From NCBI GenBank assembly GCA_035547695.1, contig DASZUK010000004.1, positions 1,299-65,298 on the forward strand: a stretch of DNA of 64,000 nt, in the 5' to 3' direction. This DNA is from Acidimicrobiales bacterium (GTDB lineage: Bacteria; Actinomycetota; Acidimicrobiia; Acidimicrobiales; RAAP-2). How positions within the stretch are numbered: position 1 is the stretch's first letter; every line of letters begins with the position of its first letter. The translations under genes were made by a program, and so were the position numbers. This document shows positions 28,492 through 59,842 of this stretch, one piece after another. Below the pieces are notes generated by a model. That model did not search any database and was not told the origin of the DNA. It was given only the letters and a program-made list of their open reading frames with translations.

Positions 28492-30453
28492 GTGGCCGGC
28501 ACCGCGACGATGCGGCCCGCAGGGGACGTGGCCGCTCGTGGGCCCGGGCCCGACGCCCACCGGACCGGGTCCGGCCGGCGGCCGTGGGGCGGCTGGAGGG
28601 AAGTCGGCGTCGTCGCCTTCTTCGTGGCCGTCGGGGTGTTCGCCTGCTGGCAGGCCGTCGGGACCGGCCACCTCTCCACCGCCGTCACCTGTTCCTGCGG
28701 AGACCCCGCCCAGGAGCTGTGGTGGCTCGAGTGGTTCCCCTGGGCCGTGGCCCACGGCCACGACCTGTTCCACACCGACCTCATGTACGCCGGCGCCGGC
28801 GGGGTCAGCGCCCTGGCCAACACCTCCTACCTCCTGCCCGCCGCCGTCCTGTCCCCGGTCACGGTGGCCGCCGGGCCGATCGCCTCGTTCAACGTCGCCA
28901 TGGTGCTGTCGGTGGCCCTGTCGTCGTGGGCCATGTACCGGTTCCTGTCCCGGCTGGCCGGCTCCCTGGCCGCCACGGTGCTGCCGGCCACCCTGTACGG
29001 GCTGTCCCCGTTCATGGTCGCCAACCTCCCCCTCGGGCACCTGAACCTGACCATGGCCTGGTACCCGCCGGTGGTGGCCTCCGTCGCCTACGACACCGTG
29101 CTCGGCCGACGACGGTCCCCGGTCCGGCTGGGCGTGGTCCTGGCGGCGGCCACCGTGGCCCAGTTCTTCACCGGCACCGAGCTGCTGGCCATGACCGGCA
29201 TCGGGGCCGTGGTGGGGGTCGCCCTGGGCCTCCTGCTGGCCCCCCGGCGGATCTGGCCGGCCCGGCACCGGGCGCTCCGGGTCGGCGGCCTCGCCGCCGC
29301 CATCGCCGTCCCGGTCCTGGCCTACCCGCTGTGGTACACCCTGTTCGGGCCCCGGCACGTCACCGGGGTCATCTGGCCGAAGGCGTCCGCGGGCGACCTG
29401 GTGTCGTCCCTGGTCGACCAGGGACCGCTGGTGCACCACAGCTATCCCGAGCTGGCCCAGATCGGCTACCGCGGTGCGGTCGGGTTGCCGGTGGGGTACA
29501 TCGGGTGGCCGGTACTGGTCTTCCTGTTGGCGTCCGTCTGGCTGTGGTGGCGATCGCGGCTGATCTGGGTGGCCTGCGGGGTCGGGCTGTGCTTCTGGTG
29601 GTTGTCCCTCGGGTCGCGGCACGGCCCGCTCTACCCCTGGAACGGCCTGCGGCACGTGCCGGTGCTCCAGCAGATCCAGCCGCAGCGGTTCTCGCAGTTC
29701 GTCGTCCTCGTCGTCTGCCTGCTGATGGCCGTCGCCCTGGACCGGTGGCGGTCCTGGCTGGTCGCCAGGTGGCGGTCGTCCGCCGGGGCACCGTCCGGCG
29801 CCGTGGTCGCGGCCGTCGGCATCGGCCTGGTGCTGTCGATCGCCGGCTGGTACACCCTTCCGTTCACCGAGGCGTCCACACCACCGCCGCAGGCGCTGAC
29901 CGCCGACCGGGGCCGGTTCGACCCGGCGACACGGCTGCTGCTCATCCCGTACCCGTCCTCGGAGGTCAGCTCCGGCATGGGCTGGCAGGCCGAACTGGAC
30001 ATGCCGTTCGCCATCGCCGGCGGGTACGTCGTCGTGCCCGGCCGGAACGGCCACGACGACGCCTGGGTGTCCAAGCCGGGAGGGGCGCTGCCGGTCCTGG
30101 ACACCCTGTCCTACGGGTACGGCCGGTCGGTGGTCCCGTCGGCGGCCCAGTTGCGCGCCGTCCGCCAACTGCTGCAGCGGACCGGGGTGACCAGGGTCAT
30201 CGTCACCACACAGGGCCGGAACCCGATCTTCGCCGCCACCCTCATGACCGCGGTGATCGGGCGGCCGCCGACGTTCCACGACGGGGCCTGGGAGTGGGAC
30301 CTGGCGTCGACCCCGATGGGCCCCATGGCGCCCCGGTCGACCCTCCGGAGGTGCGCGGCGCAGGTCCGCCTCACCGACCTGCAGGCCGGCCTCCGGTGCA
30401 TCAACTCGGCCGTTGGGCGCTCGGCCGTCAGGGGCTCGGCCGTTGGGCGCTGA
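28492..30453 (+). CDS. large polytopic membrane protein, family not recognised (GT-C-like topology?)
   Basis: 653-aa ORF with more than 10 hydrophobic segments. An acidic/aromatic first loop reads GDPAQELWWLEWFPWAVAHGHDLFHTD. The soluble C-terminal part is about 170 aa. Confidence 0.7.
   Translation: MAGTATMRPAGDVAARGPGPDAHRTGSGRRPWGGWREVGVVAFFVAVGVFACWQAVGTGHLSTAVTCSCGDPAQELWWLEWFPWAVAHGHDLFHTDLMYAGAGGVSALANTSYLLPAAVLSPVTVAAGPIASFNVAMVLSVALSSWAMYRFLSRLAGSLAATVLPATLYGLSPFMVANLPLGHLNLTMAWYPPVVASVAYDTVLGRRRSPVRLGVVLAAATVAQFFTGTELLAMTGIGAVVGVALGLLLAPRRIWPARHRALRVGGLAAAIAVPVLAYPLWYTLFGPRHVTGVIWPKASAGDLVSSLVDQGPLVHHSYPELAQIGYRGAVGLPVGYIGWPVLVFLLASVWLWWRSRLIWVACGVGLCFWWLSLGSRHGPLYPWNGLRHVPVLQQIQPQRFSQFVVLVVCLLMAVALDRWRSWLVARWRSSAGAPSGAVVAAVGIGLVLSIAGWYTLPFTEASTPPPQALTADRGRFDPATRLLLIPYPSSEVSSGMGWQAELDMPFAIAGGYVVVPGRNGHDDAWVSKPGGALPVLDTLSYGYGRSVVPSAAQLRAVRQLLQRTGVTRVIVTTQGRNPIFAATLMTAVIGRPPTFHDGAWEWDLASTPMGPMAPRSTLRRCAAQVRLTDLQAGLRCINSAVGRSAVRGSAVGR
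30405..30451. repeat. 17-bp direct repeat (30-bp period) covering the marR stop / membrane-protein 3' end
   Basis: ctcggccgttgggcgct occurs at 30405-30421 and 30435-30451. Confidence 0.85.
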
Positions 30454-31031: not shown

Positions 31032-32651
31032 ATGAGCGAGACGACCCCCGCCGCCCGCCCCGGCCGCTCTGCCCGCCCCGGCCGCTCTGCCGACCGCCCC
31101 GCCGCCCGCCCCGCCGACCGCCCCATCCTGGCCCCGGCGGCGTCGACCGAGAACCCGTTGAAGGACCCGGTGCTCCGCCGGCTGTCCATGGTGGTGATCC
31201 TCGGGGCGATCATGTCCATCCTGGACACCACCATCGTCAACGTCGCCATCGAGACGTTGAGCCGCGACTTCCACACGTCGCTGTCCACCATCCAGTGGGT
31301 CATCACCGGGTACCTGCTGGCCCTGGCCATCGTCATCCCCATGTCCGGCTGGATGGTGGAGCGGTTCGGGGCCAAGCGGATGTGGATGATCTCCCTCGGG
31401 CTGTTCACCGTCGGCTCCGCGCTGTGCGGGCTGTCGTGGTCGGCCAGCAGCATGATCGTCTTCCGCATCCTGCAGGGGCTGGGCGGCGGCATGATCATGC
31501 CGGTCGGCCAGACCATCCTGGCCCGGGCGGCCGGGCCGCAGCGGATGGGCCGGGTGATGTCCGTCCTGGGGGTGCCCACCCTGATCGCCCCGGTGCTGGG
31601 CCCGGTGCTGGGCGGCCTGATCGTGGACAACACCACCTGGCGGTGGATCTTCTTCGTCAACGTCCCCATCGGGGCCGTCGCCCTGCTGCTGTCCGCCCGG
31701 TTCCTGGTCCACGACCCCACCCACGACGCCGGCCGGTTCGACTTCGTGGGCGTCGCCCTGCTGTCCCCCGGCCTGGCCGCCCTGGTGTACGGGCTGTCCG
31801 AAGCCGGCGGCGGCAGCGGGTTCGGCGGCACCACCGTCGTCGTGCCCCTGGTGATCGGGGCGGTGCTGTGCGCCGCCTTCGTGGCCCACGCCCTGCGGAT
31901 CGACCGGCCGCTGCTGGACATGCGGCTGTTCAGGGACCGCAGCTTCTCCATGGCCAACCTGGCCACCTTCGTGTTCGGGGCCGTGCTGTACGGCGGCATG
32001 TTCCTGTTGCCGCTCTACTACCAACTGGTCCGGGGGGAGAGCGCCCTGATGGCCGGCCTGCTGATGGCCCCCCAGGGCCTCGGGGCCGCCCTGACCATGC
32101 CGTGGGGCGGCCGCATGACCGACCGGATCGGGGCCGGCAAGGTGGTGCCCATCGGCATGGTGGTGGTGCTGCTGGGCACCCTGGCCTACACCCAGGTGGG
32201 GGCGGACACCGGGTACGGCTGGCTGGCCCTCGCCCTGTTCGTCCGGGGGCTCGGGATGGGGTGGGTGATGATGCCGGTGATGGCCGCGGCGTACGTCAAC
32301 CTGACCCATGCCACCGTGCCCCGGGCCACTACCGTCATCAACATCCTGATGCGCGTGGGGGGCTCCCTCGGCACCGCCCTGGTCGCCGTGGTCCTCCAGC
32401 GCCAGATCGCCGACCGCCTGCCCAGCTTCGCCGGCATCCTGGGCTCGGCGCCGTCGTCCGGCAACGCCAAGCTGCCCGAACCGGTGGCCGCCAAGCTGGC
32501 CGGCTCGTTCGGGTACTCCTTCTGGATCGTCATCGCCATCACCGCGGTCGGCCTGGTGGCGGCTCTGGTGCTGCCGAAGGGTCGGCCGGCCCCGGCCGGC
32601 GCGCCGGGCGGCGGCGAGGGGGCCACGGTGGCGGCCCCCCTGGCGGACTGA
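31032..32651 (+). CDS. MFS transporter, DHA2 (EmrB/QacA, 14-TMS) family
   Basis: 539-aa ORF with ILDTTIVNVAIETL, FRILQGLGGGMIMP and WRWIFFVNVPIG. Confidence 0.9.
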   Translation: MSETTPAARPGRSARPGRSADRPAARPADRPILAPAASTENPLKDPVLRRLSMVVILGAIMSILDTTIVNVAIETLSRDFHTSLSTIQWVITGYLLALAIVIPMSGWMVERFGAKRMWMISLGLFTVGSALCGLSWSASSMIVFRILQGLGGGMIMPVGQTILARAAGPQRMGRVMSVLGVPTLIAPVLGPVLGGLIVDNTTWRWIFFVNVPIGAVALLLSARFLVHDPTHDAGRFDFVGVALLSPGLAALVYGLSEAGGGSGFGGTTVVVPLVIGAVLCAAFVAHALRIDRPLLDMRLFRDRSFSMANLATFVFGAVLYGGMFLLPLYYQLVRGESALMAGLLMAPQGLGAALTMPWGGRMTDRIGAGKVVPIGMVVVLLGTLAYTQVGADTGYGWLALALFVRGLGMGWVMMPVMAAAYVNLTHATVPRATTVINILMRVGGSLGTALVAVVLQRQIADRLPSFAGILGSAPSSGNAKLPEPVAAKLAGSFGYSFWIVIAITAVGLVAALVLPKGRPAPAGAPGGGEGATVAAPLAD

Positions 32652-32988
32652 CAGCCGCGCCGGCCGGGGACCGCGCCGTTGTGCGGCCCGTCCCCACCGG
32701 CTAGGGTCGCATCGGTTTTCCGCCGGGCCTGCCCGGATGCGACGGTGACCGTTCCACGATCGGGGGTTCCTTGCGGCGAGCGGGCCCCGGGGAGCCGGCA
32801 GGCTGCCGGCCCCGGGGCCGCCGCCGCTCCACAGACTCGGAGCCCAGGGTCCTCGAACCAGGGCCCTCGAACCGGAAGTACATGAAAATCACTGGAACAT
32901 CGCGTGCTTAAAAAAGTCTTCGCGAAACCTCAGCGTTTTCCTATGAAACTCCGAACTGATCCCCAGGTTTCCCTGGAAGCCTGGAGGC

Positions 32989-33624
32989 GTGGAACGGCAT
33001 CCAGGCACCTTGTGGCTGGTCCGGCACGGCGAGAGCACTTGGAACGCGCTGGGGCTGGTGCAGGGCCAGAAGGCGGAGCCGGAGCTGACCCCACGGGGTA
33101 GGGACCAGGCCGAAGCGGTCGCCCGGGCCCTGTCGTCGTCGCTGGCCGGCCGATCGCTGCGGGCGGTGTACTCCAGCGACCTCCGGCGGGCCGTCCAGAC
33201 CGCGGCGCCGGTCACCGCCGCCCTGGGCCTGGCCGCCGTGGCCGACCCTCGGCTGCGGGAGCGCAGTTTCGGCGACGTCGAGGGGCTGCCGTCTAGGCTG
33301 TTGGGCACGCAGCACTCCGGGTTCGACGGCGAGCGGGTGGTCGACGCCGACGCGTCGCCGCCCGGTGGGGAGTCGATCCGGGACCTGGTGGGACGGACGG
33401 CCGGCTTCGTGGAGGATGTCCTGGTCGGCGTCGGTGCCGGCGAGGTCGACGACGGGACGGGCGGTGACGTGGTGCTGGTGGTCCATGGCGGGGTGGTCCG
33501 GGCGCTGCTGGCCTGGCTCGACGGGGTCGAACCGGACCGCATGGCCTGGGGCGCGGTCGGGAACGGGCTGGTCGTGGGCCGGCCGTTGGCCGCCACCCGC
33601 CGGGCATCGATGTCGGCCGCCTGA
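32989..33624 (+). CDS. histidine phosphatase family protein (phosphoglycerate-mutase-like)
   Basis: It has LWLVRHGESTWNALG (the RHGE catalytic motif), SDLRRAVQTA and VVHGGVVRAL. Confidence 0.85.
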   Translation: MERHPGTLWLVRHGESTWNALGLVQGQKAEPELTPRGRDQAEAVARALSSSLAGRSLRAVYSSDLRRAVQTAAPVTAALGLAAVADPRLRERSFGDVEGLPSRLLGTQHSGFDGERVVDADASPPGGESIRDLVGRTAGFVEDVLVGVGAGEVDDGTGGDVVLVVHGGVVRALLAWLDGVEPDRMAWGAVGNGLVVGRPLAATRRASMSAA

Positions 33625-33651
33625 GCGGCCGAGGCGCGAAAGGAAGCGTGC

Positions 33652-34428
33652 ATGAACCACAGCGCTCTGCAGTTGCCGCAGCGGGCCGTCAAGCCCCGAC
33701 GGGTGGGGGTGACCATGGTGGTGGACGGCGGCCTGCCGCTGGGCACCCTGCGCGACATCGTGGCCAGCGCCGGGGAGTACCTGGACTTCGTCAAGTTCGG
33801 CTGGGGCACCGCGGTGGTGTCCTGCCAACTGGCCGACAAGGTGGCGCTGCTGCAGGACAGCGGCATCGCCTACTACTTCGGCGGCACCCTGTTCGAGAAG
33901 CACGTCCTCCAGGGCCGCTTCGAGGAGTTCCGGGCCCTCTGCCACGAGTTCTCCTGCAGCCACGTCGAGGTGTCCAACGGCACCGTCGACATGTCCAACC
34001 AGGAGAAGGCCGGCTACGTCCGGAAGCTGTCCGACGAGTTCACCGTGGTCTCCGAGGTGGGGTTCAAGGACTCGACACGGTCCGAGAAGCTGATGCCGAA
34101 GCGCTGGATCGAGTACATCCGGGAGGACCTGGAGGCCGGCGCCGCCCTGGTCACCCTGGAGTCCCGGGAGAGCGGCCGGTCCGGCATCTGCCGGCCCAAC
34201 GGCGAGCTCCGGTTCGGCCTCATCGAGGAGCTGCTGGGCGGCGAGGTGCCGACGGACCGCCTGATGTTCGAGGCCCCCACCAACACCCTGCAGGCCTACT
34301 TCGTCAGCCGGGTCGGCTACGACGTCAACCTGGGCAACGTGCCGCCCACCGGGGTCATCAGCCTGGAGACCCTGCGGCTCGGGCTGCGGGCGGACACCCT
34401 GACCGAGTTCGAAGAGCCGCGCCGGTGA
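33652..34428 (+). CDS. comA: phosphosulfolactate synthase (ComA family, PEP + sulfite -> phosphosulfolactate)
   Basis: 258-aa ORF colinear with archaeal ComA. Motifs: YLDFVKFGWGT, GGTLFE, VEVSNG, ESRESG and VISLETLRLGLRADT. Confidence 0.88.
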   Translation: MNHSALQLPQRAVKPRRVGVTMVVDGGLPLGTLRDIVASAGEYLDFVKFGWGTAVVSCQLADKVALLQDSGIAYYFGGTLFEKHVLQGRFEEFRALCHEFSCSHVEVSNGTVDMSNQEKAGYVRKLSDEFTVVSEVGFKDSTRSEKLMPKRWIEYIREDLEAGAALVTLESRESGRSGICRPNGELRFGLIEELLGGEVPTDRLMFEAPTNTLQAYFVSRVGYDVNLGNVPPTGVISLETLRLGLRADTLTEFEEPRR

Positions 34429-34838
34429 GGGAGCAGGGCGACGCCTTCCACCTGGCCGTCCCCGCCTTCGACCTGCGGGCGACCCAGCACTTCTACGTGG
34501 ACCTGCTCGGCTGCAAGCTGGCCCGGACCTACGACGACCGGATCACCGTCGACTTCTTCGGCGACCAACTGGTCTGCCACCTGACCGACCCCGGCCCGGA
34601 CTGGAAGCCGGGCGGCCCCCTGTCCCTGTACCCGCGGCACTTCGGGGTGACCTTCCGCCGGGCCGACGACTTCGACGCCCTGTACGACCTGGTCCAGCTC
34701 CGGAAGGTGCCGATGTTCCGCGACGTCGCCGTCCGGTTCGACGGCACCGCCGAGGTGCACCGCACCTTCGTCCTCCGGGACCCCTCGGACAACCTGGTCG
34801 AGTTCAAGCACTACCGCGACCCCCGGATGATGTACTGA
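34425..34838 (+). CDS. VOC (glyoxalase/bleomycin-resistance/dioxygenase fold) family protein
   Basis: The start overlaps the comA stop as GTGA. Motifs: AFHLAVPAFDLRATQHFYVDLLGC, YPRHFGV and LRDPSDNLVEFKHY. Confidence 0.72.
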   Translation: MREQGDAFHLAVPAFDLRATQHFYVDLLGCKLARTYDDRITVDFFGDQLVCHLTDPGPDWKPGGPLSLYPRHFGVTFRRADDFDALYDLVQLRKVPMFRDVAVRFDGTAEVHRTFVLRDPSDNLVEFKHYRDPRMMY

Positions 34839-34840
34839 CC

Positions 34841-36412
34841 GTGCCGTCCGTTCCCGACCTCCATCGACCGGCCGGCCCCCGGACCACCCCGTTCGGCACC
34901 CAGTTGGCCGAGCTGATCTGGGTGCGGTCGCTGACCGGGACCGACCACCCCTTCGTCGAGCACATCCGCACCGGTCGGTCGGTCACCTTCGGGGCCCTCC
35001 GCCGGGCCACCAGCCGGTGGGCCCTGCTGCTCGAAGATCTCGGCGTCGGCCTGGGGGACACCGTCGGCATCGCGGTGTCCGACCCGGTGGACTTCGCCAT
35101 GGTGTTCCTCGGCACCATGGCGGCCGGCCGGGTGGCCGCCCCGCTGGACCCGTCGGCTCCGGACGCCGAGCTGGAGATCGTCTGCGGCCGGGTGCGACCG
35201 GCCGTGGTGCTGAGCGACCGCCCCGTTCCCGGCGGCACCGGGTTCGACTGGGTGGTGCTCCGTCCGGGGTCGTTCGAGCTCCCCGACCCCGATCCGTCCA
35301 CCGCCCCGGCCCTGCCGCCGGCGCTCGGCGCCTCCGCCGGCAGCGGTTGGGTGGCCGCCGCCCGTCCCGGCGCCGGGGGACTGGTCCTCTCCACCTCCGG
35401 CACCACCGGCGCGCCGAAGCTGATCCGGCTGGACGAGCGGCAGTTGCTGCACACCGCCGGCTCCATCGCCGGCCACCACCACCTGTCGGTGGCCGACCGC
35501 GGGTTCAGCCCGTTGCCGCTGTTCCACATCAACGGCGAGGTGGTCGGCCTGCTCGCCGCGCTGGTCGCCGGCTCCACCCTGGTGCTCGACGACAAATTCC
35601 ACCGCACCCGGTTCTGGGAGCTGATGGCGGCGCACCGGATCACGTGGGTCAACGCGGTGCCGGCCATCATCGCCCGGTTGGCCCCGCTGCGGGACGGGGA
35701 GACGGTGCCGGCGGACGTCCGGTTCGTCCGCTCCGCCTCCGCCCCCCTGTCGGCGGTGACCCTGCAGCGGTTCGAGGACGCCACCGGCCTGCCGGTGATC
35801 GAGACCTACGGCATGACCGAGGCCGGCAGCCAGATCACCGCCAACCCGCTGCACGGGCCGCGCAAGCCCGGCTCGGTCGGCATGCCGGTCGGCGTCGACC
35901 TCCGGGTCGTGGGCGACCGGGTGCAGATCCGGGGCCCCGGCGTCATCACCGCCTACGCCGGCCACGGCTACGAGGACCGCGTGGACCCGGACGGTTGGCT
36001 GGACACCGGCGATCTGGGGCACCTGGACGACGACGGGTACCTTTTCCTCGTGGGCCGGGCCGACGACGTCATCAACCGGGGCGGGGAGAAGATCCTGCCC
36101 CGCGAGGTGGAGGACGTCATCCTGGCCGACCCCGACGTGCGCGCCGTGGTGGTCGTGGGCTGGGACCACCAGGTGCTGGGCCGGGTGCCGGTGGCCTTCC
36201 TGGTCGCCGAGGGGGTCGCCGGCGACGGCGACCGGCAGCGGGCGGAGGCCATCGTCGGCCGGCTGCAGGACCGGTGCGCCAGCGACCTGTCCCGACCGAA
36301 GCGCCCCGTGGCCTTCCACGTGGTCGAGCGGTTGCCGGCCGGGACCAACGGCAAGATCCGCCGGTCCCAGGTCGGGCAGGACGCGGCGATCTACAGCCTG
36401 CTGGTCAGTTGA
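34841..36412 (+). CDS. ANL-superfamily adenylating enzyme (acyl-CoA/acyl-AMP ligase)
   Basis: Motifs: LSTSGTTGAPK, YGMTEAG, GWLDTGDLG and PAGTNGKIRR. The start lies 2 nt after the VOC stop. Confidence 0.9.
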   Translation: MPSVPDLHRPAGPRTTPFGTQLAELIWVRSLTGTDHPFVEHIRTGRSVTFGALRRATSRWALLLEDLGVGLGDTVGIAVSDPVDFAMVFLGTMAAGRVAAPLDPSAPDAELEIVCGRVRPAVVLSDRPVPGGTGFDWVVLRPGSFELPDPDPSTAPALPPALGASAGSGWVAAARPGAGGLVLSTSGTTGAPKLIRLDERQLLHTAGSIAGHHHLSVADRGFSPLPLFHINGEVVGLLAALVAGSTLVLDDKFHRTRFWELMAAHRITWVNAVPAIIARLAPLRDGETVPADVRFVRSASAPLSAVTLQRFEDATGLPVIETYGMTEAGSQITANPLHGPRKPGSVGMPVGVDLRVVGDRVQIRGPGVITAYAGHGYEDRVDPDGWLDTGDLGHLDDDGYLFLVGRADDVINRGGEKILPREVEDVILADPDVRAVVVVGWDHQVLGRVPVAFLVAEGVAGDGDRQRAEAIVGRLQDRCASDLSRPKRPVAFHVVERLPAGTNGKIRRSQVGQDAAIYSLLVS

Positions 36413-37743
36413 CCGCCGTCGGCACCGGCGGCCCCGCGGCCACGGCGGACGCGGTCGACGCCGTGCCGGCCTCCGCTCCGGCGCAGGCCCCGCAGGCCGG
36501 CGAGGCCACGGCGGCGGCGCCGGCCAAGAAGGCCAAGAAGCGGCTGGACCACGTCGACGCCATGCGGCCCATCAAGCAGGCCGGCGTGGTGTCCACCCAC
36601 TCCCTCCTGTTCTTCGCTCCCGGGGCCAGCCTGGCGGTGGGCGGCGCGCTGATGCTGCTGCACGTCACCCGGGAGGCGTTCCTGTTCATCTCGGCCTGCA
36701 TGCTGATGTACAGCTACGGCGCCCTGAAGCGGTCCGGCTACGGCCGGTTCTACAAGCGCCGGTTCGTGTCGGTCTGCCTGCCGTACCTGTGCTGGACCGT
36801 CATCTACTTCTTCGTCACCCTGCCCACAGGGACCTACACCCCGTGGACCGGGTTCCGGCACTTCTGGTTCCTGGTGGCCACCGGCTATTACCAGCTCTAC
36901 TACCTGCTGGTCATCATGCAGTTCTACGTGCTGTTCCCGCTGCTGCTGCTGCTGGTCCGCCGCACCAAGGGGCACCACGCCGCCCTGATGGCCGCCAGCC
37001 TCGTCGTGCAGGTGCTGGTGGTCAGCCTCATGCACTGGCGGGTGCTGCCGCCGGAGATGCGCGGCTTCTGGGCCAGCCGGGAGGTCATCTCGTACCAGTT
37101 CTACCTGCTGGCCGGCATGGTGGCCGCGGTGCACCTGGACGACGTCCACAACTGGATCTGCCGCCACGTCCGCCTCATCCTGGCCGGCACGGTGGTGTCC
37201 GCGGCGGTGGCCGAGGTCTGGTTCGTGCTTTCGGCCAGGCACATCGTCCCCTGGATGGGGTCGGGGTCGGACCCCCTGCAGCCGATCGTCATCCCGTTCA
37301 ACGTCGGGGCCATCGCCTGCATCTACCTCGTCGGCGTCTACCTGGTCGACGCCCGCCGGTCCACCACGGTGCGGGCCATGATCCGGTCCGGCTCCGACAA
37401 CTCCTACGGCATCTACCTGGCCCAGATGCTGTTCATCCTCGCCCTTAGCTGGCTGGGCTGGCGGGCCCTCGACCACTACCTGTCCTGGCCGGTGGTCAGC
37501 ATCCTGACGATCACCATCGTGTTCCTCGGCTGCATCCTGCTGACCAGCCTCCTGGCCCGGACCCCGCTGACCGTCGCCCTGACCGGCCGGCAGCGCCAGG
37601 AGTGGCGCACCTGGGCCCCCGAACGGTGGCGGTCCCGGCCGACAACGCCGGCCGAGCTGGCCGCGGAGGAGGCGGTGTCCTCGCCCATCGACCCCGACCC
37701 GCTGGCCGCCGATCCGGTGGCCGCCGATCCGGTGGCCACGTGA
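36409..37743 (+). CDS. membrane acyltransferase-3 (AT3) family protein, copy 1
   Basis: The start overlaps the ligase stop as TTGA. It has the AT3 N-terminal motif RLDHVDAMRPIKQAGVVSTH and about 10 TM segments, with YYQLYYLLVIMQFYVLFPLL. Confidence 0.8.
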   Translation: MTAVGTGGPAATADAVDAVPASAPAQAPQAGEATAAAPAKKAKKRLDHVDAMRPIKQAGVVSTHSLLFFAPGASLAVGGALMLLHVTREAFLFISACMLMYSYGALKRSGYGRFYKRRFVSVCLPYLCWTVIYFFVTLPTGTYTPWTGFRHFWFLVATGYYQLYYLLVIMQFYVLFPLLLLLVRRTKGHHAALMAASLVVQVLVVSLMHWRVLPPEMRGFWASREVISYQFYLLAGMVAAVHLDDVHNWICRHVRLILAGTVVSAAVAEVWFVLSARHIVPWMGSGSDPLQPIVIPFNVGAIACIYLVGVYLVDARRSTTVRAMIRSGSDNSYGIYLAQMLFILALSWLGWRALDHYLSWPVVSILTITIVFLGCILLTSLLARTPLTVALTGRQRQEWRTWAPERWRSRPTTPAELAAEEAVSSPIDPDPLAADPVAADPVAT

Positions 37744-39077
37744 CCGCGGTGTCCGCCGCCCGCGCCGCCGCGCCCGGCCCGTCGGCCGCGGCCGCGACCG
37801 GCTCCGTCGTCACCGGCCGCGGGTTCTACCTCCGGCAGTTCGACCTGTTCCGCACCGTCGCCTTCGTCGGGGTGGTGGCCCAGCACTCGGTGCTGTGGCC
37901 GGTGACCGGCGGGGCCAAGATCGGGTGGGGCTCGGTGATGCTGCTGCACGCCACCCGGGAGATCTTCTTCTTCCTCAGTGCCTTCGTGGCCTACTACGCG
38001 CAGGCCACCCGGCCCCGCTCCCCGGGCCGGCTGTGGTGGCGGCGGCTGACCCAGATCGTGGTGCCGTACCTGGTGTGGACGGTGGTGTACTGGACCTACA
38101 CAATGATCGTGAACCCCCAGCCCCTCGGCGGCCTGGGGTCGTTCCGCCACGACCTGTGGTGGGGCTACTACCAGCTCTACTACGCGGTGGTCCTCATCCA
38201 GTTCTTCGTGCTGCTGCCCCTGCTGATCTGGCTGGTCCGGGTCAGCCGGCGGTACCACTGGTGGGTGCTCGGGGGCAGCGTCCTGCTGCAGTTGGCCATG
38301 ATGACGATCTCCCACTACTTCTCCTGGAAGACCGGCGTCGGCCACACCATCCGGCACTTCGACATCGACCTGACCCAGTCCCGGCTGATCGTGGGGTACC
38401 AGCTCTACATCGTGGCCGGGTTGCTGGCCGCCGACCATGCCGACGACGTGCAGCGGTTCGTGGCCCGCCACCACCGGGCCATCGTCGCCGGAGCCGCCGC
38501 CGTCGGGGTGCTGGCCATCGGCTACTACGTCGTCGGCCTCTCCCTCCACCAGACCCCCGGCCACGCCTCCGACCTGTACCAACCGGTGGCCGTGGTCTGG
38601 TTCATGGCCGCCGCCGCCGGGCTGTACGCGCTGGGCTGGATCTGGGCCAACCGGTCCGCCGCCCGGCCGGCGCCGGCCCGGATCGACCGGCTGCTGACCT
38701 GGGGCTCCGACCTGTCCGGCGGGTTCTACTTCGCCCACGTCCTGGTGCTGCAGCTCGTCCTGATGGGCCTGGTGCACGCCGGCCTGGAGTCGGCGGCGCC
38801 GTGGTGGGTGACCAGCGTGGTGCTGTTCCCGGCCACCCTGGCCGGCACCGCCATCCTGGTGACCCTCCTGGAGCGGACCCCGGCGCGATTCGCGCTGACC
38901 GGGCCGAACCGGACGGAGGAGCGGGCGACCCTGGCGTGGCTGCCCCGGCCGTCCTGGCTCCGCCAGGCCGGCGACCCGGCCGGGGCCGGCGCGGGGCGGG
39001 ACACCGGCCCGGCGATCGGTGACCCCAGGGCCTGGGCCGGCCGTCCCCAGATCCCGCCGGCCCTGGCCACCACCTAG
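37740..39077 (+). CDS. membrane acyltransferase-3 (AT3) family protein, copy 2 (tandem paralogue)
   Basis: The start overlaps copy 1 as GTGA. Motifs: LRQFDLFRTVAFVGVVAQHS and YYQLYYAVVLIQFFVLLPLL. Confidence 0.8.
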   Translation: MTAVSAARAAAPGPSAAAATGSVVTGRGFYLRQFDLFRTVAFVGVVAQHSVLWPVTGGAKIGWGSVMLLHATREIFFFLSAFVAYYAQATRPRSPGRLWWRRLTQIVVPYLVWTVVYWTYTMIVNPQPLGGLGSFRHDLWWGYYQLYYAVVLIQFFVLLPLLIWLVRVSRRYHWWVLGGSVLLQLAMMTISHYFSWKTGVGHTIRHFDIDLTQSRLIVGYQLYIVAGLLAADHADDVQRFVARHHRAIVAGAAAVGVLAIGYYVVGLSLHQTPGHASDLYQPVAVVWFMAAAAGLYALGWIWANRSAARPAPARIDRLLTWGSDLSGGFYFAHVLVLQLVLMGLVHAGLESAAPWWVTSVVLFPATLAGTAILVTLLERTPARFALTGPNRTEERATLAWLPRPSWLRQAGDPAGAGAGRDTGPAIGDPRAWAGRPQIPPALATT

Positions 39078-39110
39078 CGGCTCCGCCTGCCAGGCGGTCG
39101 GCCCGCCCGT

Positions 39111-39134
39111 CTGCCCGCCTGCCCGCCTGCCCGC
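39111..39134. repeat. (CTGCCCGC)x3 tandem octamer between convergent genes
   Basis: Three perfect units lie at 39111-39118, 39119-39126 and 39127-39134. Confidence 0.9.
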
Positions 39135-39146
39135 CGGCCGGCCGGT

Positions 39147-40106
39147 TCAGGCCCGGCCGCCCCGTTCGGCTCCGGCCGCCCCCAGCGCGTGGGCCGCGGC
39201 GTCGGCGATGGCGTCGTACCCGCGGGTGTTGGGGTGGACGTTGTGGTGGGCGTACGGCAGCGGGCTGCAGGTCCATCCGAGCCGGCAGGCCAGGGCCACC
39301 TCGGCGGGGACCCGGCCGTGCCCGCGCAGGAGGACCGGGTGGAGGTTGCCCACGTCGAACGCCCGGGGGACGTCGGCCACCGGGTCGCCGGCCGCCCGGT
39401 ACGCGGAGCGGAGCACCGCGTTCAACCGGTCGAAGGCCACCACGCTCTCCTGGGCGAACCTCCGGCCCTTCGGCCCGCCGAGGTAGAACCCCAGAAAGGG
39501 GTCGTTGTGCTCCAGCCCGACCACGTGCAGCCCGGGGCCGCCGGCGGCGGCCAACCGCCGGAGCAGCAGCCGCAGGTGGCGCGCCACCTCCCGCAGGGTG
39601 GTGGCCACGCAGGACCGGCCCACCCGCTCGTGGGCCAGGCAGGGCCGCAGGTCGTTGAAGCCGAGGTCCACGGTGGCCACCACGGTGGTGGCCGCGTGGG
39701 CCCGGATGAACCCCACCGCTGTGGCCAGTTGCGAACCGCTCGGGTACCGGCAGGCACCGCCGCCGTCGACGGCGGCCGCCACGGTGGTGCCCGGGCAGCC
39801 GAACTGCACCAGCCGGAGCCCGGGCCAGCGGTGCCTCAAGGTGGCCGCCAGGTCGTTGGCGTACCCGTGGTCGGTCCGCCTTCCCCGACGGTGCCCGGGG
39901 ACCGGCTGCACCCCGACCGACTCGGACGCCCCGATGGCCACGTAGTAGGTGGTCCGCGGCCGGTGGCGCGCCGCGGTCGCCCCGGACGGGCCCCCGACGA
40001 CGGCGGAGCCCAACAGCCCGACGGCGCTGAGGCCGACCCCGGCGGCCACCACCCACCGTCCCGTCCACCACGTCGTCCACCATCCCGTCCGCCGGCGACT
40101 CAGCAT
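39147..40106 (-). CDS. secreted/anchored SGNH (GDSL-like) hydrolase
   Basis: 319-aa ORF with an N-terminal TM/signal WWTGRWVVAAGVGLSAVGLLG. Block I is AIGASESVG and block V is HPNTRGY. Confidence 0.78.
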   Translation of the reverse strand: MLSRRRTGWWTTWWTGRWVVAAGVGLSAVGLLGSAVVGGPSGATAARHRPRTTYYVAIGASESVGVQPVPGHRRGRRTDHGYANDLAATLRHRWPGLRLVQFGCPGTTVAAAVDGGGACRYPSGSQLATAVGFIRAHAATTVVATVDLGFNDLRPCLAHERVGRSCVATTLREVARHLRLLLRRLAAAGGPGLHVVGLEHNDPFLGFYLGGPKGRRFAQESVVAFDRLNAVLRSAYRAAGDPVADVPRAFDVGNLHPVLLRGHGRVPAEVALACRLGWTCSPLPYAHHNVHPNTRGYDAIADAAAHALGAAGAERGGRA

Positions 40107-40217: not shown

Positions 40218-41939
40218 CTACGTGCGGTGCCGGGCCAGGTCGGCGTCCAGCCGGCCCCGGTCGCCGGCGGTGAGCACCCGGTACGGGCCGTCCCGGTCCG
40301 GCCGCCACCACACCGGGTCGACGGTGGTCCAGCCGTCGTCCCGCAGGGCGGCCTTGGTGATCTTGCCGTTGGCCGTCTGGGGGATGGTGCCGGTGACCCG
40401 GACGAACCGGGGGGCCCACTTGGTGCCCAGGTCCGGCTGGGCGGCCAGCCAGGCCGCGAAGCCGTCGGGATCGAAGGCGGCCCCGGGCCGCAGCTCCACC
40501 GCGGCCATCACCTGGTCGCCGGCCGCGGTGGCGGTGTCGGGGACCGGGTAGACGGCGGCCACCACCACGTCGGGGTGCCGGCACAGCACCGCCTCGACGG
40601 GGCCGGCCGCGAAGTTCTCGGAGTCCACCCGCAGCCAGTCGCCGCCGCGGCCGGCGTAGTAGAAGTACCCCGCCGCGTCCCGGTAGGCCAGGTCCCCGGT
40701 CCAGTACCAGCCGTTCCGGGTCCGGTCGGACGCCGCGCCGGGGTCGCCGTAGTAGCCCTCGAACTTGCCGGGGCCGCTGCGGTTGACCAGCTCCCCGGTG
40801 GCCTCCGCGGCGTTGGCCAGCCGGCCGGCGCCGTCGACCACCGCCGGTGGGCACTCCTCCCCGGTGTCCGGGTCCACCACCGCCAGGTCCACCCCCGGGG
40901 CCGCCTTGCCCAGCGACCCGGCCGGCATGCCGGCCACCGGGTTGATGGTGGCCCCGCCCTCGCTCTGGCCGTAGCCCTCCACCAGGACGCAGCCGAACCG
41001 CTCGGCGAACCGCCGGCGGTCCCGGGCGGACGCCTCGGTGCCGAACGCGCTGACCAGCGTGTTGTCGGCGTCGTCCGGCCGCTCCGGGGTGGCCAGGATG
41101 TAGGCGACGGCCTTGCCGACGTAGCTGAACATGGTGGCCCGGTACCGGCGGACGTCGTCCAGGAACGCCGACGCGCTGAACCGGGGCCGCAGCGCCACGG
41201 TGGCCCCGACGTACAGGGCCGGCCCCCACAGCGCCATGAGGGCGTTGCCGTGGAACAGCGGCATCGGGCAGTAGCACACGCTGTCCCGCCGGTACCCGTA
41301 GCCGGGGGCCGCCACCTCGGCGATGCCGGCCAGCCGGCCCTGGGTGCACCGCACCGCCTTCGGCCGGCCGGCGGTGCCGGAGGTGAACAGCAGCAGGAAC
41401 AGCCGGTCCTCCGGTATGTCGGCGGCCCCGGCCAGCACCGCACGGGCCGCCGCCGCTTGCGGACTGGCTGCTTCCGGACTGGCTCCCTCCGGCCCGGCGG
41501 CCTCCGGGCCGGTCCCGCCGGGGTCCCAGGCGGCCACGGCGGCGGCGTAGGCCGGGGTGCCCACCACCAGCACCCGGTCGGCCGCCACCCCCAGGTCCAG
41601 GCCGGCCAGCAGGGCGGCGCCGTCGGCGTCGGTGACGATCACCTGGCAGTCGGTGGCCCGGACGTCGGCGGCCAGGGCGTCGCCGCGGCGGGTGGGGTTG
41701 ATCCCCACCACCGTCGCCCCGACCAGGGCGGCGGCCCCCAGCCAGAACAGGTACTCCGGGACGTTCGGCAGCAGCACCCCGACGTGGAACGGCCCCGGCC
41801 GCCGCAGCGACTGCGCCAGTGCCCCCCGGCTGCAGCCGGCAGCCACCACCTGTCGCCACGTCCACGACCCGGTGGGGTCCAGCACCGCCGGGTGGTCGTC
41901 GTCGGCCCGGGCCGCCAGGAACCCCGCGATCGTGCTCAT
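40218..41939 (-). CDS. FadD-like fatty-acyl-CoA/AMP ligase (ANL superfamily)
   Basis: 573-aa ORF with FTSGTAGRPK, GYGQSEGG, WYWTGDLAY and QTANGKITK. Confidence 0.9.
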   Translation of the reverse strand: MSTIAGFLAARADDDHPAVLDPTGSWTWRQVVAAGCSRGALAQSLRRPGPFHVGVLLPNVPEYLFWLGAAALVGATVVGINPTRRGDALAADVRATDCQVIVTDADGAALLAGLDLGVAADRVLVVGTPAYAAAVAAWDPGGTGPEAAGPEGASPEAASPQAAAARAVLAGAADIPEDRLFLLLFTSGTAGRPKAVRCTQGRLAGIAEVAAPGYGYRRDSVCYCPMPLFHGNALMALWGPALYVGATVALRPRFSASAFLDDVRRYRATMFSYVGKAVAYILATPERPDDADNTLVSAFGTEASARDRRRFAERFGCVLVEGYGQSEGGATINPVAGMPAGSLGKAAPGVDLAVVDPDTGEECPPAVVDGAGRLANAAEATGELVNRSGPGKFEGYYGDPGAASDRTRNGWYWTGDLAYRDAAGYFYYAGRGGDWLRVDSENFAAGPVEAVLCRHPDVVVAAVYPVPDTATAAGDQVMAAVELRPGAAFDPDGFAAWLAAQPDLGTKWAPRFVRVTGTIPQTANGKITKAALRDDGWTTVDPVWWRPDRDGPYRVLTAGDRGRLDADLARHRT

Positions 41940-42004
41940 TGCCCGCCTGGGGCCCCAACCCCAAGCTCCTCCGAGGCGAGGGGCCCCAACCCCTCGCCGG
42001 CCGT
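41940..42004 (-). repeat. third copy of the GGGGCCCC intercistronic repeat, filling the gap between two operon genes
   Basis: The minus strand reads ACGGCCGGCGAGGGGTTGGGGCCCCTCGCCTCGGAGGAGCTTGGGGTTGGGGCCCCAGGCGGGCA and is followed directly by the ATG of the fadD-like gene. Confidence 0.85.
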
Positions 42005-42009
42005 GGTGC

Positions 42010-43176
42010 TCACGGCCCGCCGGCCGGGCGGCGGACGAGGGACCGGTCGATGTCGGCCACGGTGGGGGCCCCGCAGAGGGCCATGGCCCGGCGGACCTCC
42101 CGCTCGAACCAGTCCAGCAGCTCCGTGACGCCGTCGGCCCCGGCGGTGGCCAGGGACCAGATGACCGGGCGGCCCAGCAGGACGGCCCGTGCCCCGAGGG
42201 CCAGGGCCTTCACCACGTCGGCCGGCCGGCGGAGGCCGCCGTCCACGTACACCTCCGCCCGGTCCCCGACGGCGTCGGCGACGTCGGCCACCACGTCGGC
42301 GGTGGCCGGCCCGTCGTCCAACTGCCGGGCCCCGTGGTTGGACACCAGGACGGCGGCGGCGCCGCTGTCGACGCAGCGGACCGCGTCGTCCGGCCGCAGC
42401 ACCCCCTTCACCACCACCGGCAGCCCGCTGACGTCGGCCAGCCAGCCGATGTCGTCGAAGCCGACGGACCGGTCGAACTCGTTGCCGACCACCGCCATGA
42501 ACCCGCCCTCCCGGGCCCGGTCGGTGCTGTCGACGGTCAGGTTGGGCAGCACCAGGTCGTCGGGCAGGTGCACCCCCTCCCGGATCTCCCGACGGCGCAG
42601 GCCGGAGACCGGGGTGTCGACGGTGAGCACCAGCGCCCGGTACCCGGCGGCGGCCGCCCGGGTCACCATGTCCACCGTGGCGGACCGGTCCCGCAGGATG
42701 TACACCTGCATCCACCGCACCCCGTCCGGCGCGGCGGCCGCCACCGCCTCCAGCGGCTGGGTGGCCAGCGACGACAGCACCAGGCAGGTCCCCGCGGCGG
42801 CGGCCGCGGCGGCGGTGGCCAGCTCGGCGTCGGGGTGGGCCAGCCCCTGGATGGCCGTCGGGGCGACCAGCACCGGGGACCGCACCGGGGCGCCCAGCAC
42901 GGTGGTGGCGGTGTCGCACCGGCTGACGTCGACCAGGACCCGGGGGTGCAGCCGCCACCGCGACCAGGCCGCCACGTTGTCGGCCAACTGCCGCTCCTGG
43001 TCGGCGGCGCCGGCGTAGTAGGCGTAGGCCATCTCCCCGACGGCCTGCCGGGCGGCCTGCTCCAGCAGCGCCAGGTCGAGCTGGGCCTCCCGGGCCGCCG
43101 CAGGGGTACCGCCGTCCGGAGTGGGCGCGACGGGCGCGGTGCTGCCAAGATGGGGCCTGACCGGATGGGTCGTCAT
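42010..43176 (-). CDS. FMN-dependent alpha-hydroxy-acid oxidase/dehydrogenase (LldD / glycolate-oxidase family)
   Basis: Motifs: RVLVDV, SNHGARQLD, VYVDGGLRRPADV and GARAVLLGRP. GTG 43203 is an alternative start. Confidence 0.88.
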   Translation of the reverse strand: MTTHPVRPHLGSTAPVAPTPDGGTPAAAREAQLDLALLEQAARQAVGEMAYAYYAGAADQERQLADNVAAWSRWRLHPRVLVDVSRCDTATTVLGAPVRSPVLVAPTAIQGLAHPDAELATAAAAAAAGTCLVLSSLATQPLEAVAAAAPDGVRWMQVYILRDRSATVDMVTRAAAAGYRALVLTVDTPVSGLRRREIREGVHLPDDLVLPNLTVDSTDRAREGGFMAVVGNEFDRSVGFDDIGWLADVSGLPVVVKGVLRPDDAVRCVDSGAAAVLVSNHGARQLDDGPATADVVADVADAVGDRAEVYVDGGLRRPADVVKALALGARAVLLGRPVIWSLATAGADGVTELLDWFEREVRRAMALCGAPTVADIDRSLVRRPAGGP

Positions 43177-43270
43177 GCGGCCGATGGTAGGCCGGTCGAC
43201 CACGGGGGGGCATGGTCGCCGTCCCGAACGGACGCAGGTCGGGCGGAAGCCCGGCCGCAGGGGGGTGAAC

Positions 43271-44143
43271 GTGCGCTTTTCCTACGCCGAGTCCATGACC
43301 GACCCGTCGTTCTACGTGCCCCTGGCCAGGGCCGCCGAGGAAGCCGGGTACGACAGCATGGTGGTCCCCGACAGCATCTGCTACCCGGAGCACGCCGACA
43401 GCGTGTACCCGTTCAACCCCGACGGCACCCGCGAGTTCCTGGACGACAAGCCGTTCCTGGAGCCGTTCTCCCTCATCCCCGCCCTCGGGGTGGTGACCGA
43501 GAAGCTGCGGTTCACCACCTTCGTCGTCAAGCTGCCCATCCGCAACCCGGTGCTGGTGGCCAAGCAGGCCACCTCCACCGCCGTCCTCACCGGCAACCGG
43601 CTGCTGCTGGGGGTGGGCACCAGTCCGTGGCGGGAGGACTACGACGTCCTCGGCGTGCCCTGGGAGCGCCGGGGCCGCCGGATGGACGAGGCGCTGGACA
43701 TCGTCAAGGGCCTGTCCGCCGGCGGGTTCTTCGAGTACCACGGCGACATCTTCGACGTGCCGTCCATCAAGATGACCCCGGTGCCCACCGAGCCGCTGCC
43801 CATCCTGATCGGCGGCCACGGCGACGCCGCCCTGCGCCGCGCCGCCCGGATGGGGGACGGCTGGATGCACGGCGGCGGCAACCCCGACGACCTGCCCGGC
43901 CTGCTCCGGCGGCTGGCCGAGCTGCGCCAGGACGAGGGCACCGCCGACCGGCCGTTCGAGGTGCACGTCATCTCCGCCGACGCCTACACCGTCGACGGGG
44001 TCCGCCGGCTCGAGGAGCGGGGGGTCACCGACGTCATCGTCGGGTTCCGGTGGCCCTACGACGTCGGCCCGGACACCGAGCCGCTGCAGGACAAGCTCGA
44101 CAACCTCCGCCGGTTCGCCGACGCCGTCATCGCCAAGGTCTGA
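43271..44143 (+). CDS. LLM-class F420-dependent oxidoreductase
   Basis: It starts VRFSYAESMTDPSFYVPLARAAEEAGYDSMVVPDS and contains LLLGVGTSPW and ILIGGHGDAALRRAARMGDGW. Confidence 0.83.
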   Translation: MRFSYAESMTDPSFYVPLARAAEEAGYDSMVVPDSICYPEHADSVYPFNPDGTREFLDDKPFLEPFSLIPALGVVTEKLRFTTFVVKLPIRNPVLVAKQATSTAVLTGNRLLLGVGTSPWREDYDVLGVPWERRGRRMDEALDIVKGLSAGGFFEYHGDIFDVPSIKMTPVPTEPLPILIGGHGDAALRRAARMGDGWMHGGGNPDDLPGLLRRLAELRQDEGTADRPFEVHVISADAYTVDGVRRLEERGVTDVIVGFRWPYDVGPDTEPLQDKLDNLRRFADAVIAKV

Positions 44144-44164
44144 GAGACGCCGAGGTCTGAGAGA
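44136..44164. repeat. 12-bp direct repeat (17-bp period) duplicating the LLM stop codon
   Basis: aggtctgagaga occurs at 44136-44147 and 44153-44164. Confidence 0.85.
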
Positions 44165-44175
44165 AAGGAGTGGCC

Positions 44176-59831: not shown

Positions 59832-59842
59832 TTGGACTGGTT
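59789..59842. repeat. 18-bp tandem triplication at the adaptor-stop / ATPase-start junction
   Basis: gggtcatgtggactggc occurs at 59789 and 59807, and gggtcatttggactggt at 59825. The encoded sequence is M-TRPVH-M-TPPVH-M-T. Confidence 0.9.

Follow-up and report, generated by a model that had tools for sequence, protein, structure and literature searches.

Organization of the locus

This analysis concerns a gene cluster at positions 32989–40106 of a 64-kb stretch of DNA from an Acidimicrobiales bacterium (contig DASZUK010000004.1; the whole stretch of 64,000 nucleotides is called the window below), in which a gene for a ComA-type phosphosulfolactate synthase stands next to genes for an acyl-activating ligase and membrane acyltransferases. 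Genes were called in the window, the G+C content of which is about 73%, with a GC3 frame plot and a GC3-based gene call. The cluster opens on the forward strand with hisP (32989–33624), encoding a protein of the histidine phosphatase superfamily, branch 1 (Pfam His_Phos_1, 8e-42), for which the gene call allows an alternative TTG start at 33010. On the same strand it is followed by comA (33652–34428), encoding the predicted (2R)-phospho-3-sulfolactate synthase (Pfam ComA, 3e-80), a gene for a metalloenzyme of the VOC fold (34425–34838; Pfam Glyoxalase, 9e-12), ANL1 (34841–36412), encoding a putative AMP-forming acyl-CoA ligase (Pfam AMP-binding, 2e-50, together with AMP-binding_C), and two genes for membrane acyltransferase-3 (AT3) proteins, the core AT3a (36409–37743; Pfam Acyl_transf_3, 2e-26) and the second, accessory AT3b (37740–39077; Pfam Acyl_transf_3, 6e-34). 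A membrane-anchored SGNH/GDSL enzyme is encoded on the reverse strand (39147–40106; Pfam Lipase_GDSL_2, 3e-12), convergently to the operon.

Read in order, hisP and comA are 27 nt apart, comA and the VOC gene overlap by GTGA, the VOC gene and ANL1 are separated by 2 nt, ANL1 and AT3a overlap by TTGA and AT3a and AT3b again by GTGA, with a convergent spacer of 69 nt before the SGNH gene; no convincing terminator was found inside the operon in a terminator scan. Public gene calls on the same DNA gave identical product lengths (211, 258, 137, 523 and 444 aa). The gene calls and the reading of the junctions bear out the first-pass annotation of this DNA as to the coordinates of the seven genes, their order and their overlaps and gaps, and each family that it had proposed to search for (ComA, His_Phos_1, Glyoxalase, AMP-binding, Acyl_transf_3 and Lipase_GDSL_2) was matched by Pfam. 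The spacer between AT3b and the SGNH gene (39078–39146) contains a short GC hairpin, CCGCCTG/CAGGCGG, and also a CTGCCCGC-like octamer that is present in tandem, in three to four copies.

The 5′ end of the operon abuts an AT-rich intergenic stretch of about 130 nt (32860–32988, forward strand), which is unusual against the 73% GC background and shows a drop in GC at all codon positions. It is a candidate promoter or regulatory region. A promoter scan found no sigma-70 consensus in it, the promoter and terminator scan of the window gave nothing exceeding shuffled expectation and an Rfam scan of the window, this stretch included, returned no family.

Conservation of the gene set

The conservation of the cluster was followed in two surveys. 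In the ComA-side survey, the window proteins were mapped onto the best 80 ComA loci from one-genome-per-species contigs, and the reciprocal survey started from AT3a and used metagenome contigs; only loci with enough flanking sequence were taken into the counts. The VOC gene adjoined comA in all 79 loci and hisP in 77 of 79, and orthologs of both ANL1 and AT3a were found beside comA without exception (58/58 each). The SGNH gene was present in 48 of 63 loci. The AT3b type occurred in 29 of 63, either downstream, as in the window, or upstream of hisP. Viewed from AT3a, the same partners returned: ANL1 in 29/29, VOC in 21/21, ComA in 20/21 and HisP in 12/15 loci.

This content is preserved in at least four gene orders (HisP-ComA-VOC-ANL-AT3, HisP-ComA-VOC-AT3-ANL, ANL-ComA-VOC-AT3 and HisP-ANL-ComA-VOC-AT3), and the order ligase-ComA-VOC was found in cassette variants L114–L119. 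The first of these arrangements is carried by a Dormibacterota metagenome-assembled genome (MAG), and a JGI contig carries ComA-VOC-ANL-AT3. In locus L116, SGNH-ANL-ComA-VOC-AT3 all point in the same direction, and in the cultured Alicyclobacillus acidoterrestris (CP080467.1, about 4.054–4.061 Mb) ANL, an MFS gene and AT3 are divergent from SGNH-ComA-VOC. The cassette is spread over at least three bacterial phyla, its hosts including Actinomycetota, Dormibacterota and Alicyclobacillus. Every related locus that was examined and was long enough to show it carries this set of genes again, which puts the arrangement far outside what chance would produce. The suggested check of ComA and AT3 co-occurrence was thus answered from both sides (58/58 and 20/21), and near-perfect co-conservation across phyla despite reshuffled orders upholds the view that the genes form one functional unit. 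The core of this unit is HisP, ComA, VOC, ANL and one AT3, whereas the SGNH protein and the second AT3 are frequent accessories; the membership proposed in the first-pass annotation therefore holds for the core and not for the twin AT3 and the SGNH enzyme as constant parts.

No other family belongs to the cassette with comparable regularity. An all-against-all clustering of the genes flanking the ComA-side loci gave no other family in more than 19 loci, and the most frequent ones were housekeeping genes of one subclade. The flanks were conserved only among close relatives and were of a housekeeping type, with no biosynthetic cluster. An open reading frame resembling a PP-binding domain (acyl carrier protein, ACP) was found neither in nor beside the 88 ComA/VOC-anchored loci scanned (L001–L088), the genes flanking the L116 cassette gave no PP-binding Pfam match, and the abutting genes of the window leave no room for an ACP gene. 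Since no carrier protein was present near the cassette loci scanned, a CoA thioester as the acyl donor fits these data.

The phosphosulfolactate synthase

ComA matched its Pfam family (PF02679) with 269.6 bits against a gathering threshold of 25.2, over profile positions 2–243 of 243, and gave full-length matches to Bacillus subtilis YitD (1U83; 5e-80) and to the Methanocaldococcus jannaschii enzyme (1QWG; 4e-44). It shares 47% identity with YitD and 38–43% with the ComAs that are encoded on plasmids and belong to the bacterial coenzyme M (CoM) pathway. All 61 alignment columns that are invariant among 1QWG, 1U83 and cassette homologs of four lineages are retained, including K48, E82, E106, E135, K139, E170, R172, E173 and E207. 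K139 is the equivalent of M. jannaschii K137, which we take to be the catalytic acid of phosphosulfolactate synthase. Loss of catalytic residues had been named beforehand as the finding that would speak against this enzyme; with all 61 kept, the assignment stands. On family membership and conserved residues, ComA is predicted to form (2R)-phosphosulfolactate from phosphoenolpyruvate (PEP) and sulfite.

ComA matches on plasmids were confined to the CoM/alkene clade and a few others, and no Streptomyces locus of the misaugamycin (mis) type described below was found among them. Plasmids of Brevibacillus laterosporus and Legionella lytica (H37 and H38) carry phosphosulfolactate synthase genes outside the known CoM/alkene context. 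A ComA-like protein in a different gene context, cg2797 of Corynebacterium glutamicum, is reported to be acid-induced, its induction being 3.2-fold at pH 6 (PMC2627906).

The putative phosphatase

HisP belongs to His_Phos_1 and not to the ComB family (PF04029). The branch 1 catalytic core is complete in its RHG motif, its second Arg, its Glu and its second His; R12-H13-G14, R67, E91 and H166 show at least 95% conservation among 73 orthologs, and E15 is conserved too. Its nearest Protein Data Bank (PDB) structure is the glucosyl-3-phosphoglycerate phosphatase GpgP of Mycobacterium tuberculosis (4PZ9). A ComB homolog was found in the 64-kb window neither by tblastn with a ComB query nor by Pfam scans of nearly all called genes, in agreement with the ComB absence reported before.

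In Ferroacidibacillus organovorans, an operon ComB-ComA-VOC has a canonical ComB (PF04029) in exactly the slot of HisP. Because ComB occupies the same operon position in another phylum, the assignment of HisP as phosphosulfolactate phosphatase gains support, and together with the phosphoglycerate-type nearest structure this strengthens the earlier suggestion of a non-orthologous substitute: HisP may do the job of ComB without being a member of its family. The Ferroacidibacillus operon (L086; LPVJ01000007.1) is placed inside a sporulation gene neighborhood, with dpaA/dpaB, asd, dapG, dapA and, further on, ylzJ before it and ftsK/spoIIIE after it. In B. subtilis, homologs of ComA and ComB are used for spore sulfolactate.

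The VOC-fold enzyme

The VOC protein is 57% identical to an orphan structure, 3RRI from Alicyclobacillus acidocaldarius, and belongs to a tight family, the sampled members of which are 53–75% identical to the window protein across phyla. Its predicted structure (pLDDT 90.6) comprises two beta-alpha-beta-beta-beta modules and matches 3RRI with a TM score of 0.88. The next structural neighbors were FosA/FosB/FosX, glyoxalase I and uncharacterized VOC proteins. With 15–25% identity and TM scores of about 0.55–0.68 to the Fos and glyoxalase I structures, the protein is a member of none of these families, and no methylmalonyl-CoA epimerase (MMCE) was found among the top 50 structural neighbors. The family is a distinct orphan VOC clade.

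Among the invariant residues are H9, H52, H72, E110, H112, E126, six Arg and K128. What we take to be the FosA Mn ligands His7 and Glu110 align with H9 and E126, and H72 lies no more than two residues from FosA H64. A FosA-like metal site combined with seven invariant basic residues would suit a small polyanionic substrate. In A. mali and Ferroacidibacillus the VOC gene accompanies comA with no ligase nearby, and for this reason the enzyme probably acts on the free acid; it would convert sulfolactate to sulfoacetate. The role of an acyl-CoA epimerase was down-weighted, both on account of the occurrence without a ligase and because no MMCE was among the top 50 neighbors. More distant homologs (35–40% identity, on proteobacterial and cyanobacterial plasmids) were also inspected, but their neighborhoods were unrelated and uninformative.

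In two Sulfobacillus-type Firmicutes loci (L084 and L087), the VOC family occurs without ComA, beside a D-2-hydroxyacid dehydrogenase, an MFS transporter and MurJ-like flippases, and in L087 a sulfotransferase and an SGNH gene are additionally found nearby. Here the same substrate may be formed in a different way, and a further connection to envelope polymers may exist.

The acyl-activating ligase

The nearest PDB relatives of ANL1 are the oxalate-CoA ligases 5IE0 (1e-62), 6QJZ and 8AFF, followed by MenE and malonyl-CoA synthetase. The motifs A3 (S186-K193), A5 (Y323-E327), A7 (T389/D391), A8 (R406-K417) and A10 (K505) are conserved in 70 orthologs. The top NCBIfam match was the FadD7 fatty-acid-CoA ligase family, with 246 bits against a cut-off of 650.

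The substrate pocket was mapped onto the published oxalate pocket of AtAAE3, in which Ser289 and His319 are the oxalate-specific residues (PMC8905533). Of the two, S289 is kept (S300) and H319 is replaced by S330; further replacements are H216 to N231, C288 to A299 and A313 to G324. Because the oxalate-specific His has become Ser and further pocket residues are smaller, ANL1 would not be an oxalate ligase. By sequence, it is a relative of the oxalate ligases with a roomier, polar pocket, and it is proposed to activate a short anionic acid, sulfoacetate or sulfolactate, with CoA.

The acyltransferases and the SGNH protein

AT3a and AT3b scored 93 and 118 bits against PF01757 (cut-off 31) and are 36.9% identical to each other. 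AT3a has about ten hydrophobic segments. In the first transmembrane helix (TMH1), the R/K-X10-H motif, defined for this family and essential in OafA (PMC7448272), reads R53-X10-H64 in AT3a, where it is conserved in 60 orthologs together with FLFISA, and R38-X10-H49 in AT3b, where it is conserved in the orthologs as well. The FFXISG motif of TMH2 reads FLFISA in AT3a and FFFLSA in AT3b, Gly being replaced by Ala in both.

The SGNH protein has one N-terminal hydrophobic segment (residues 18–39). S61 (in GASES), G103/G106, N151 (in GFND), H291 (in NVHPN) and six Cys are conserved in 46 orthologs, and no evident Asp stands at its customary place three residues ahead of the His. The anchor and the six conserved Cys indicate that the protein is probably extracytoplasmic. 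A sequence search of the PDB gave no match for it, and a single-sequence AlphaFold model reached a pLDDT of 42.8. SGNH genes adjoin the cassette in three architectures, those of A. acidoterrestris and L116 among them, and are mutually too diverged for tblastn; being placed beside the cassette in three different ways is strong evidence that the SGNH protein works with it. The envelope logic of an AT3 protein paired with an SGNH partner, put forward in the first-pass annotation, gains from this recruitment. The SGNH protein is proposed to be the final transferase or an esterase.

Proposed pathway and alternative explanations

Taken as a whole, the cassette probably is an operon complete in itself, by which a short sulfonated acyl group is made in activated form and passed across the membrane, a reading for which the sequence data give slightly better than even chances. 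ComA would condense PEP and sulfite to phosphosulfolactate, as family membership and conserved residues suggest, and HisP would release sulfolactate, as the ComB in its slot in another phylum leads one to expect. At a 2-His-1-Glu metal center, the VOC enzyme would then turn sulfolactate and O2 into sulfoacetate, CO2 and H2O; such an O2-dependent oxidative decarboxylation is the most economical course since no external reductant is needed. As far as is known, the named hosts are aerobes or facultative aerobes. ANL1 would convert sulfoacetate to sulfoacetyl-CoA, which its resemblance to oxalate and malonate ligases and the SauT and MisO precedents make plausible. AT3a, with or without AT3b, would carry the acyl group through the membrane, and at an acceptor outside the cytoplasm, probably a glycan of the cell wall, the anchored SGNH enzyme would attach or trim it. 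By these steps the envelope would acquire a strongly acidic negative charge that does not depend on pH.

The first-pass annotation had held that no described pathway links ComA to ANL enzymes, and here it was mistaken. The cluster for misaugamycin, a type V glycopeptide of Streptomyces sp. WAC00631, contains the four-gene operon misNOPQ, encoding one ACP, one acyl-CoA ligase, one phosphosulfolactate synthase and one glyoxalase, which are predicted to supply the N-terminal 2-sulfoacetyl group of misaugamycin-B (PMC9136965). This congener is favored by sulfite feeding, and a malonyl congener is co-produced (PMC9136965). Three observations make a C2 sulfoacetyl group likelier than sulfolactyl: the misNOPQ precedent, the oxalate/malonate-like ligase pocket and the presence of the VOC gene in ligase-free ComB-ComA-VOC operons. 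Sulfoacetate is an isostere of malonate, and so it fits both the relatives of ANL1 and the malonyl/sulfoacetyl pair in misaugamycin. Within the general picture, sulfoacetyl was therefore weighted well above sulfolactyl. The earlier idea of a sulfonate-acyl modification of the envelope thus persists as regards the unit and its AT3/SGNH logic, and probably not as regards sulfolactyl as the acyl group.

In its full form, the proposal is that acid-soil Actinomycetota (Acidimicrobiia and relatives of Streptosporangiales), Dormibacterota and Alicyclobacillus put ester-linked 2-sulfoacetyl on an envelope polymer, with the VOC family of 3RRI as a new metal-dependent sulfolactate-to-sulfoacetate oxidative decarboxylase and the source of their sulfoacetate. 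The modification would be one not seen on glycans before, its negative charge persisting even at very low pH. This version is tentative, its chances lying somewhat below even. Several points weigh against the general picture. The NCBIfam equivalog TIGR03849 (arch_ComA) was matched with 220.5 bits, below its cut-off of 280; that model takes its name from the archaeal enzymes, and ComA matches the structure of the bacterial YitD much more strongly (5e-80). The reaction assigned to the VOC enzyme is a guess, and we know of no VOC enzyme with a sulfolactate-to-sulfoacetate reaction. No SGNH gene is adjacent in 15 of 63 loci, some loci are without any phosphatase, and no glycan-synthesis genes are consistently linked to the cassette loci, so that the acceptor could be a lipid or a small molecule. 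In the RXXR motif of loop 2-3, which reads KRRFVS in AT3a and RRLTQ in AT3b, only the first of the two Arg is retained; neither FFXISG nor RXXR is absolutely conserved in AT3 proteins (PMC7448272). Everything beyond the assignment of families is drawn from genomic context.

The comparative evidence would serve equally well for the C3 acid envisaged in the first-pass annotation, in which the acid to be adenylated and to end as a sulfolactyl ester on the envelope would be unmodified sulfolactate or a C3 product of the VOC enzyme, for instance an epimer. ComA and a phosphatase give sulfolactate directly, and the pocket of ANL1, larger than that of AAE3 and lined by smaller residues at four positions, would take a C3 acid too. 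Such a scheme, however, leaves the VOC enzyme without a necessary role: epimerases of the methylmalonyl-CoA type were not in its top 50 structural neighbors, and its occurrence with no ligase nearby speaks against a CoA-thioester substrate. Moreover, the only product-anchored precedent for ComA, a glyoxalase and a ligase gives C2 sulfoacetyl, beside a malonyl congener (PMC9136965), and the literature searched contains neither sulfolactyl nor sulfolactoyl as a term. The C3 ester was consequently considered rather unlikely. An acceptor other than an envelope glycan, namely a secreted or membrane natural product or a lipid, was also judged unlikely. The AT3 might resemble the O-acyltransferases for macrolides and ansamitocin in Streptomyces, or ANL1 might activate a fatty acid that AT3 esterifies with sulfolactate into a sulfonolipid. 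The related mis cassette does decorate an antibiotic, in Actinomycetota there are AT3 enzymes that acylate macrolides, chromomycin and ansamitocin (PMC9558356), and FadD7 was the top NCBIfam match of ANL1, although far under its cut-off. Yet no scaffold-biosynthesis genes (NRPS, PKS or glycosyltransferase sets) are linked, the flanks vary by lineage and look like housekeeping regions, and the nearest solved relatives of ANL1 are short-dicarboxylate and not long-chain ligases. The anchored or lipoprotein SGNH partners with conserved Cys likewise point to a polymer-type reaction outside the cytoplasm.

If ComA, the phosphatase and the VOC enzyme made a soluble sulfonate, whether a spore or compatible solute or a sink for sulfite, then ANL, AT3 and SGNH would be unrelated neighbors. 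Loci in which ComA-VOC or ComB-ComA-VOC has no ANL or AT3 nearby, as in A. mali and Ferroacidibacillus, the latter among sporulation genes, would agree with this, as would the spore sulfolactate made by ComA/ComB homologs in B. subtilis and the MFS transporter beside some cassettes. Against it stand the constant company of ANL and AT3 with ComA (58/58) and of ComA with AT3a (20/21), kept through four gene orders and across phyla, and the overlaps of the translational-coupling type along the whole operon, which make it improbable. A part in CoM biosynthesis is scarcely credible. Both known CoM pathways that depend on PEP, the archaeal and the bacterial one, begin with ComA (PMC9457059), but genes of the ComC/ComDE or XcbC/D/E type (aspartase/fumarase family, PLP enzyme) are present neither in the cassette nor in the 64-kb window, and the window ComA is just 38–43% identical to the plasmid-borne ComAs of that pathway. 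A sulfoacetyl group delivered to the envelope stays our preferred reading.

Host range and possible significance

The named hosts of ComA-VOC are mostly acidophiles or come from acid soil and peat: Alicyclobacillus, Sulfobacillus, Ferroacidibacillus, Acidimicrobiales, Trebonia, Ktedonobacterales, Dormibacterota and MAGs from palsa and SPRUCE peat. This tendency is an impression from the host names in the homolog lists and suggests a role in surface charge at low pH.

Should the proposal prove true, AT3/SGNH modification of bacterial surface glycans would gain both an acyl donor and a chemical class that are new to it, the class being that of sulfonate ester-acyl groups, and the cassette would be the first AT3/SGNH system found to carry its own module for donor synthesis. 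A function would be provided for 3RRI and for the many comA genes without an assigned role in aerobic bacteria that form no CoM, and a biosynthetic route to sulfoacetate would be suggested. The proposal would also point to a sink for sulfite and organosulfur in abundant, mostly uncultured soil lineages. It may be that the modification adapts the envelope to low pH, where a sulfonate stays ionized and carboxylates and phosphates do not. The presence of the cassette in the cultured A. acidoterrestris (CP080467.1) makes the idea directly testable.

Neighboring genes in the window

Past the SGNH gene lies a block (40218–44610) that encodes a second ANL ligase and an FMN-dependent 2-hydroxyacid dehydrogenase, both on the reverse strand, and a luciferase-like monooxygenase and a SnoaL-like protein on the forward strand; it is conserved only in two near relatives, L004 and L098. 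For this reason, both the second ligase (ANL2, 40218–41939) and the dehydrogenase (42010–43203) were rejected as cassette members. A 2-hydroxyacid oxidase near an operon that would produce sulfolactate is suggestive, yet it lies outside the conserved cassette.

Upstream of the operon, an MFS gene (31032–32651), a PIG-L gene (27628–28449) and a gene for a 653-aa membrane protein (28492–30453) were considered and rejected as core parts on the basis of the ComA-side loci and the clustering of flanking genes. The 653-aa protein, encoded on the forward strand between the PIG-L deacetylase and the MFS protein, is polytopic, with about ten or more hydrophobic segments and no Pfam match, and the closest relatives (L001–L004, L094 and L095) have no room for it at that place. 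Further away, on the reverse strand, an 845-aa Calx-beta-domain protein (59828–62365) is encoded upstream of an ABC ATPase and a MacB/FtsX-type permease (57883–59831, also reverse). It may be secreted or surface-exposed and have an exporter of its own, and it has no connection with the cassette.

Comparison with known systems

The cassette shares its first step, the solved fold of the enzyme and the dephosphorylation that follows with the archaeal ComA-ComB(-ComC-ComDE) pathway, the bacterial XcbB-XcbC-D-E pathway and YitD/YitC of B. subtilis. It differs from them in that its phosphatase would be a histidine phosphatase and that VOC, ANL and AT3 are unrelated to any step of CoM synthesis. A more distant likeness is offered by the Dlt system, in which the adenylase DltA, the carrier DltC, the MBOAT protein DltB and the SGNH-like DltD put D-alanyl onto a wall polymer and alter the surface charge. 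There too, a small acid is activated in the cytoplasm by an ANL enzyme dedicated to it and is taken across the membrane by a polytopic acyltransferase before an SGNH-type protein finishes the transfer, but the acyltransferase is an MBOAT and not an AT3, a carrier protein is needed and the D-alanyl group is cationic, whereas a sulfonate is anionic.

For the activation step, the likeness is one of reaction. SauT of Cupriavidus necator is a sulfoacetate-CoA ligase of the AMP-forming type (PMC10413351), and as a PF00501 enzyme making the CoA thioester of a sulfonated carboxylate it has the activity proposed for ANL1, with the difference that SauT is catabolic and feeds SauS/Xsc.

With the AT3 and AT3-SGNH glycan O-acyltransferases (OafA/OafB and OatA; OpgC/MdoC and ExoH, which transfer succinyl), the cassette has in common the polytopic Acyl_transf_3 protein, the R/K-X10-H motif of TMH1 and the SGNH partner. 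AT3 proteins use acyl-CoA donors, the anionic succinyl included, and pair with SGNH partners (PMC9558356, PMC7448272); the donors reviewed are acetyl, succinyl, propionyl, isovaleryl and related groups, and a ligase is never mentioned in that review (PMC9558356). The known systems draw their donors from central metabolism (acetyl-, succinyl- and propionyl-CoA), whereas the cassette AT3 sits in an operon that apparently makes and activates its own unusual donor. Its SGNH domain is a separate protein, and RXXR is partly kept. A link between ComA and AT3/SGNH was not found in the literature searched, and neither sulfolactyl, sulfolactoyl nor sulfolactylation had a relevant occurrence there. AT3/SGNH surface acylation and the mis-type supply of sulfoacetyl are each already known, while their combination in one operon is undescribed in that literature.

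The closest relative remains misNOPQ. Its trio of ligase, ComA and glyoxalase corresponds, as a match of families, to 33652–36412 of the window and to the same genes in every related locus. In the mis cluster an ACP is used and the acyl group goes to an antibiotic made by an NRPS; the cassette has AT3 proteins, usually an SGNH protein and usually a dedicated phosphatase, with no ACP and no biosynthetic cluster. By this analogy, the two would share the same supply module at the level of families, with delivery swapped from an ACP that serves an NRPS to an AT3/SGNH pair.

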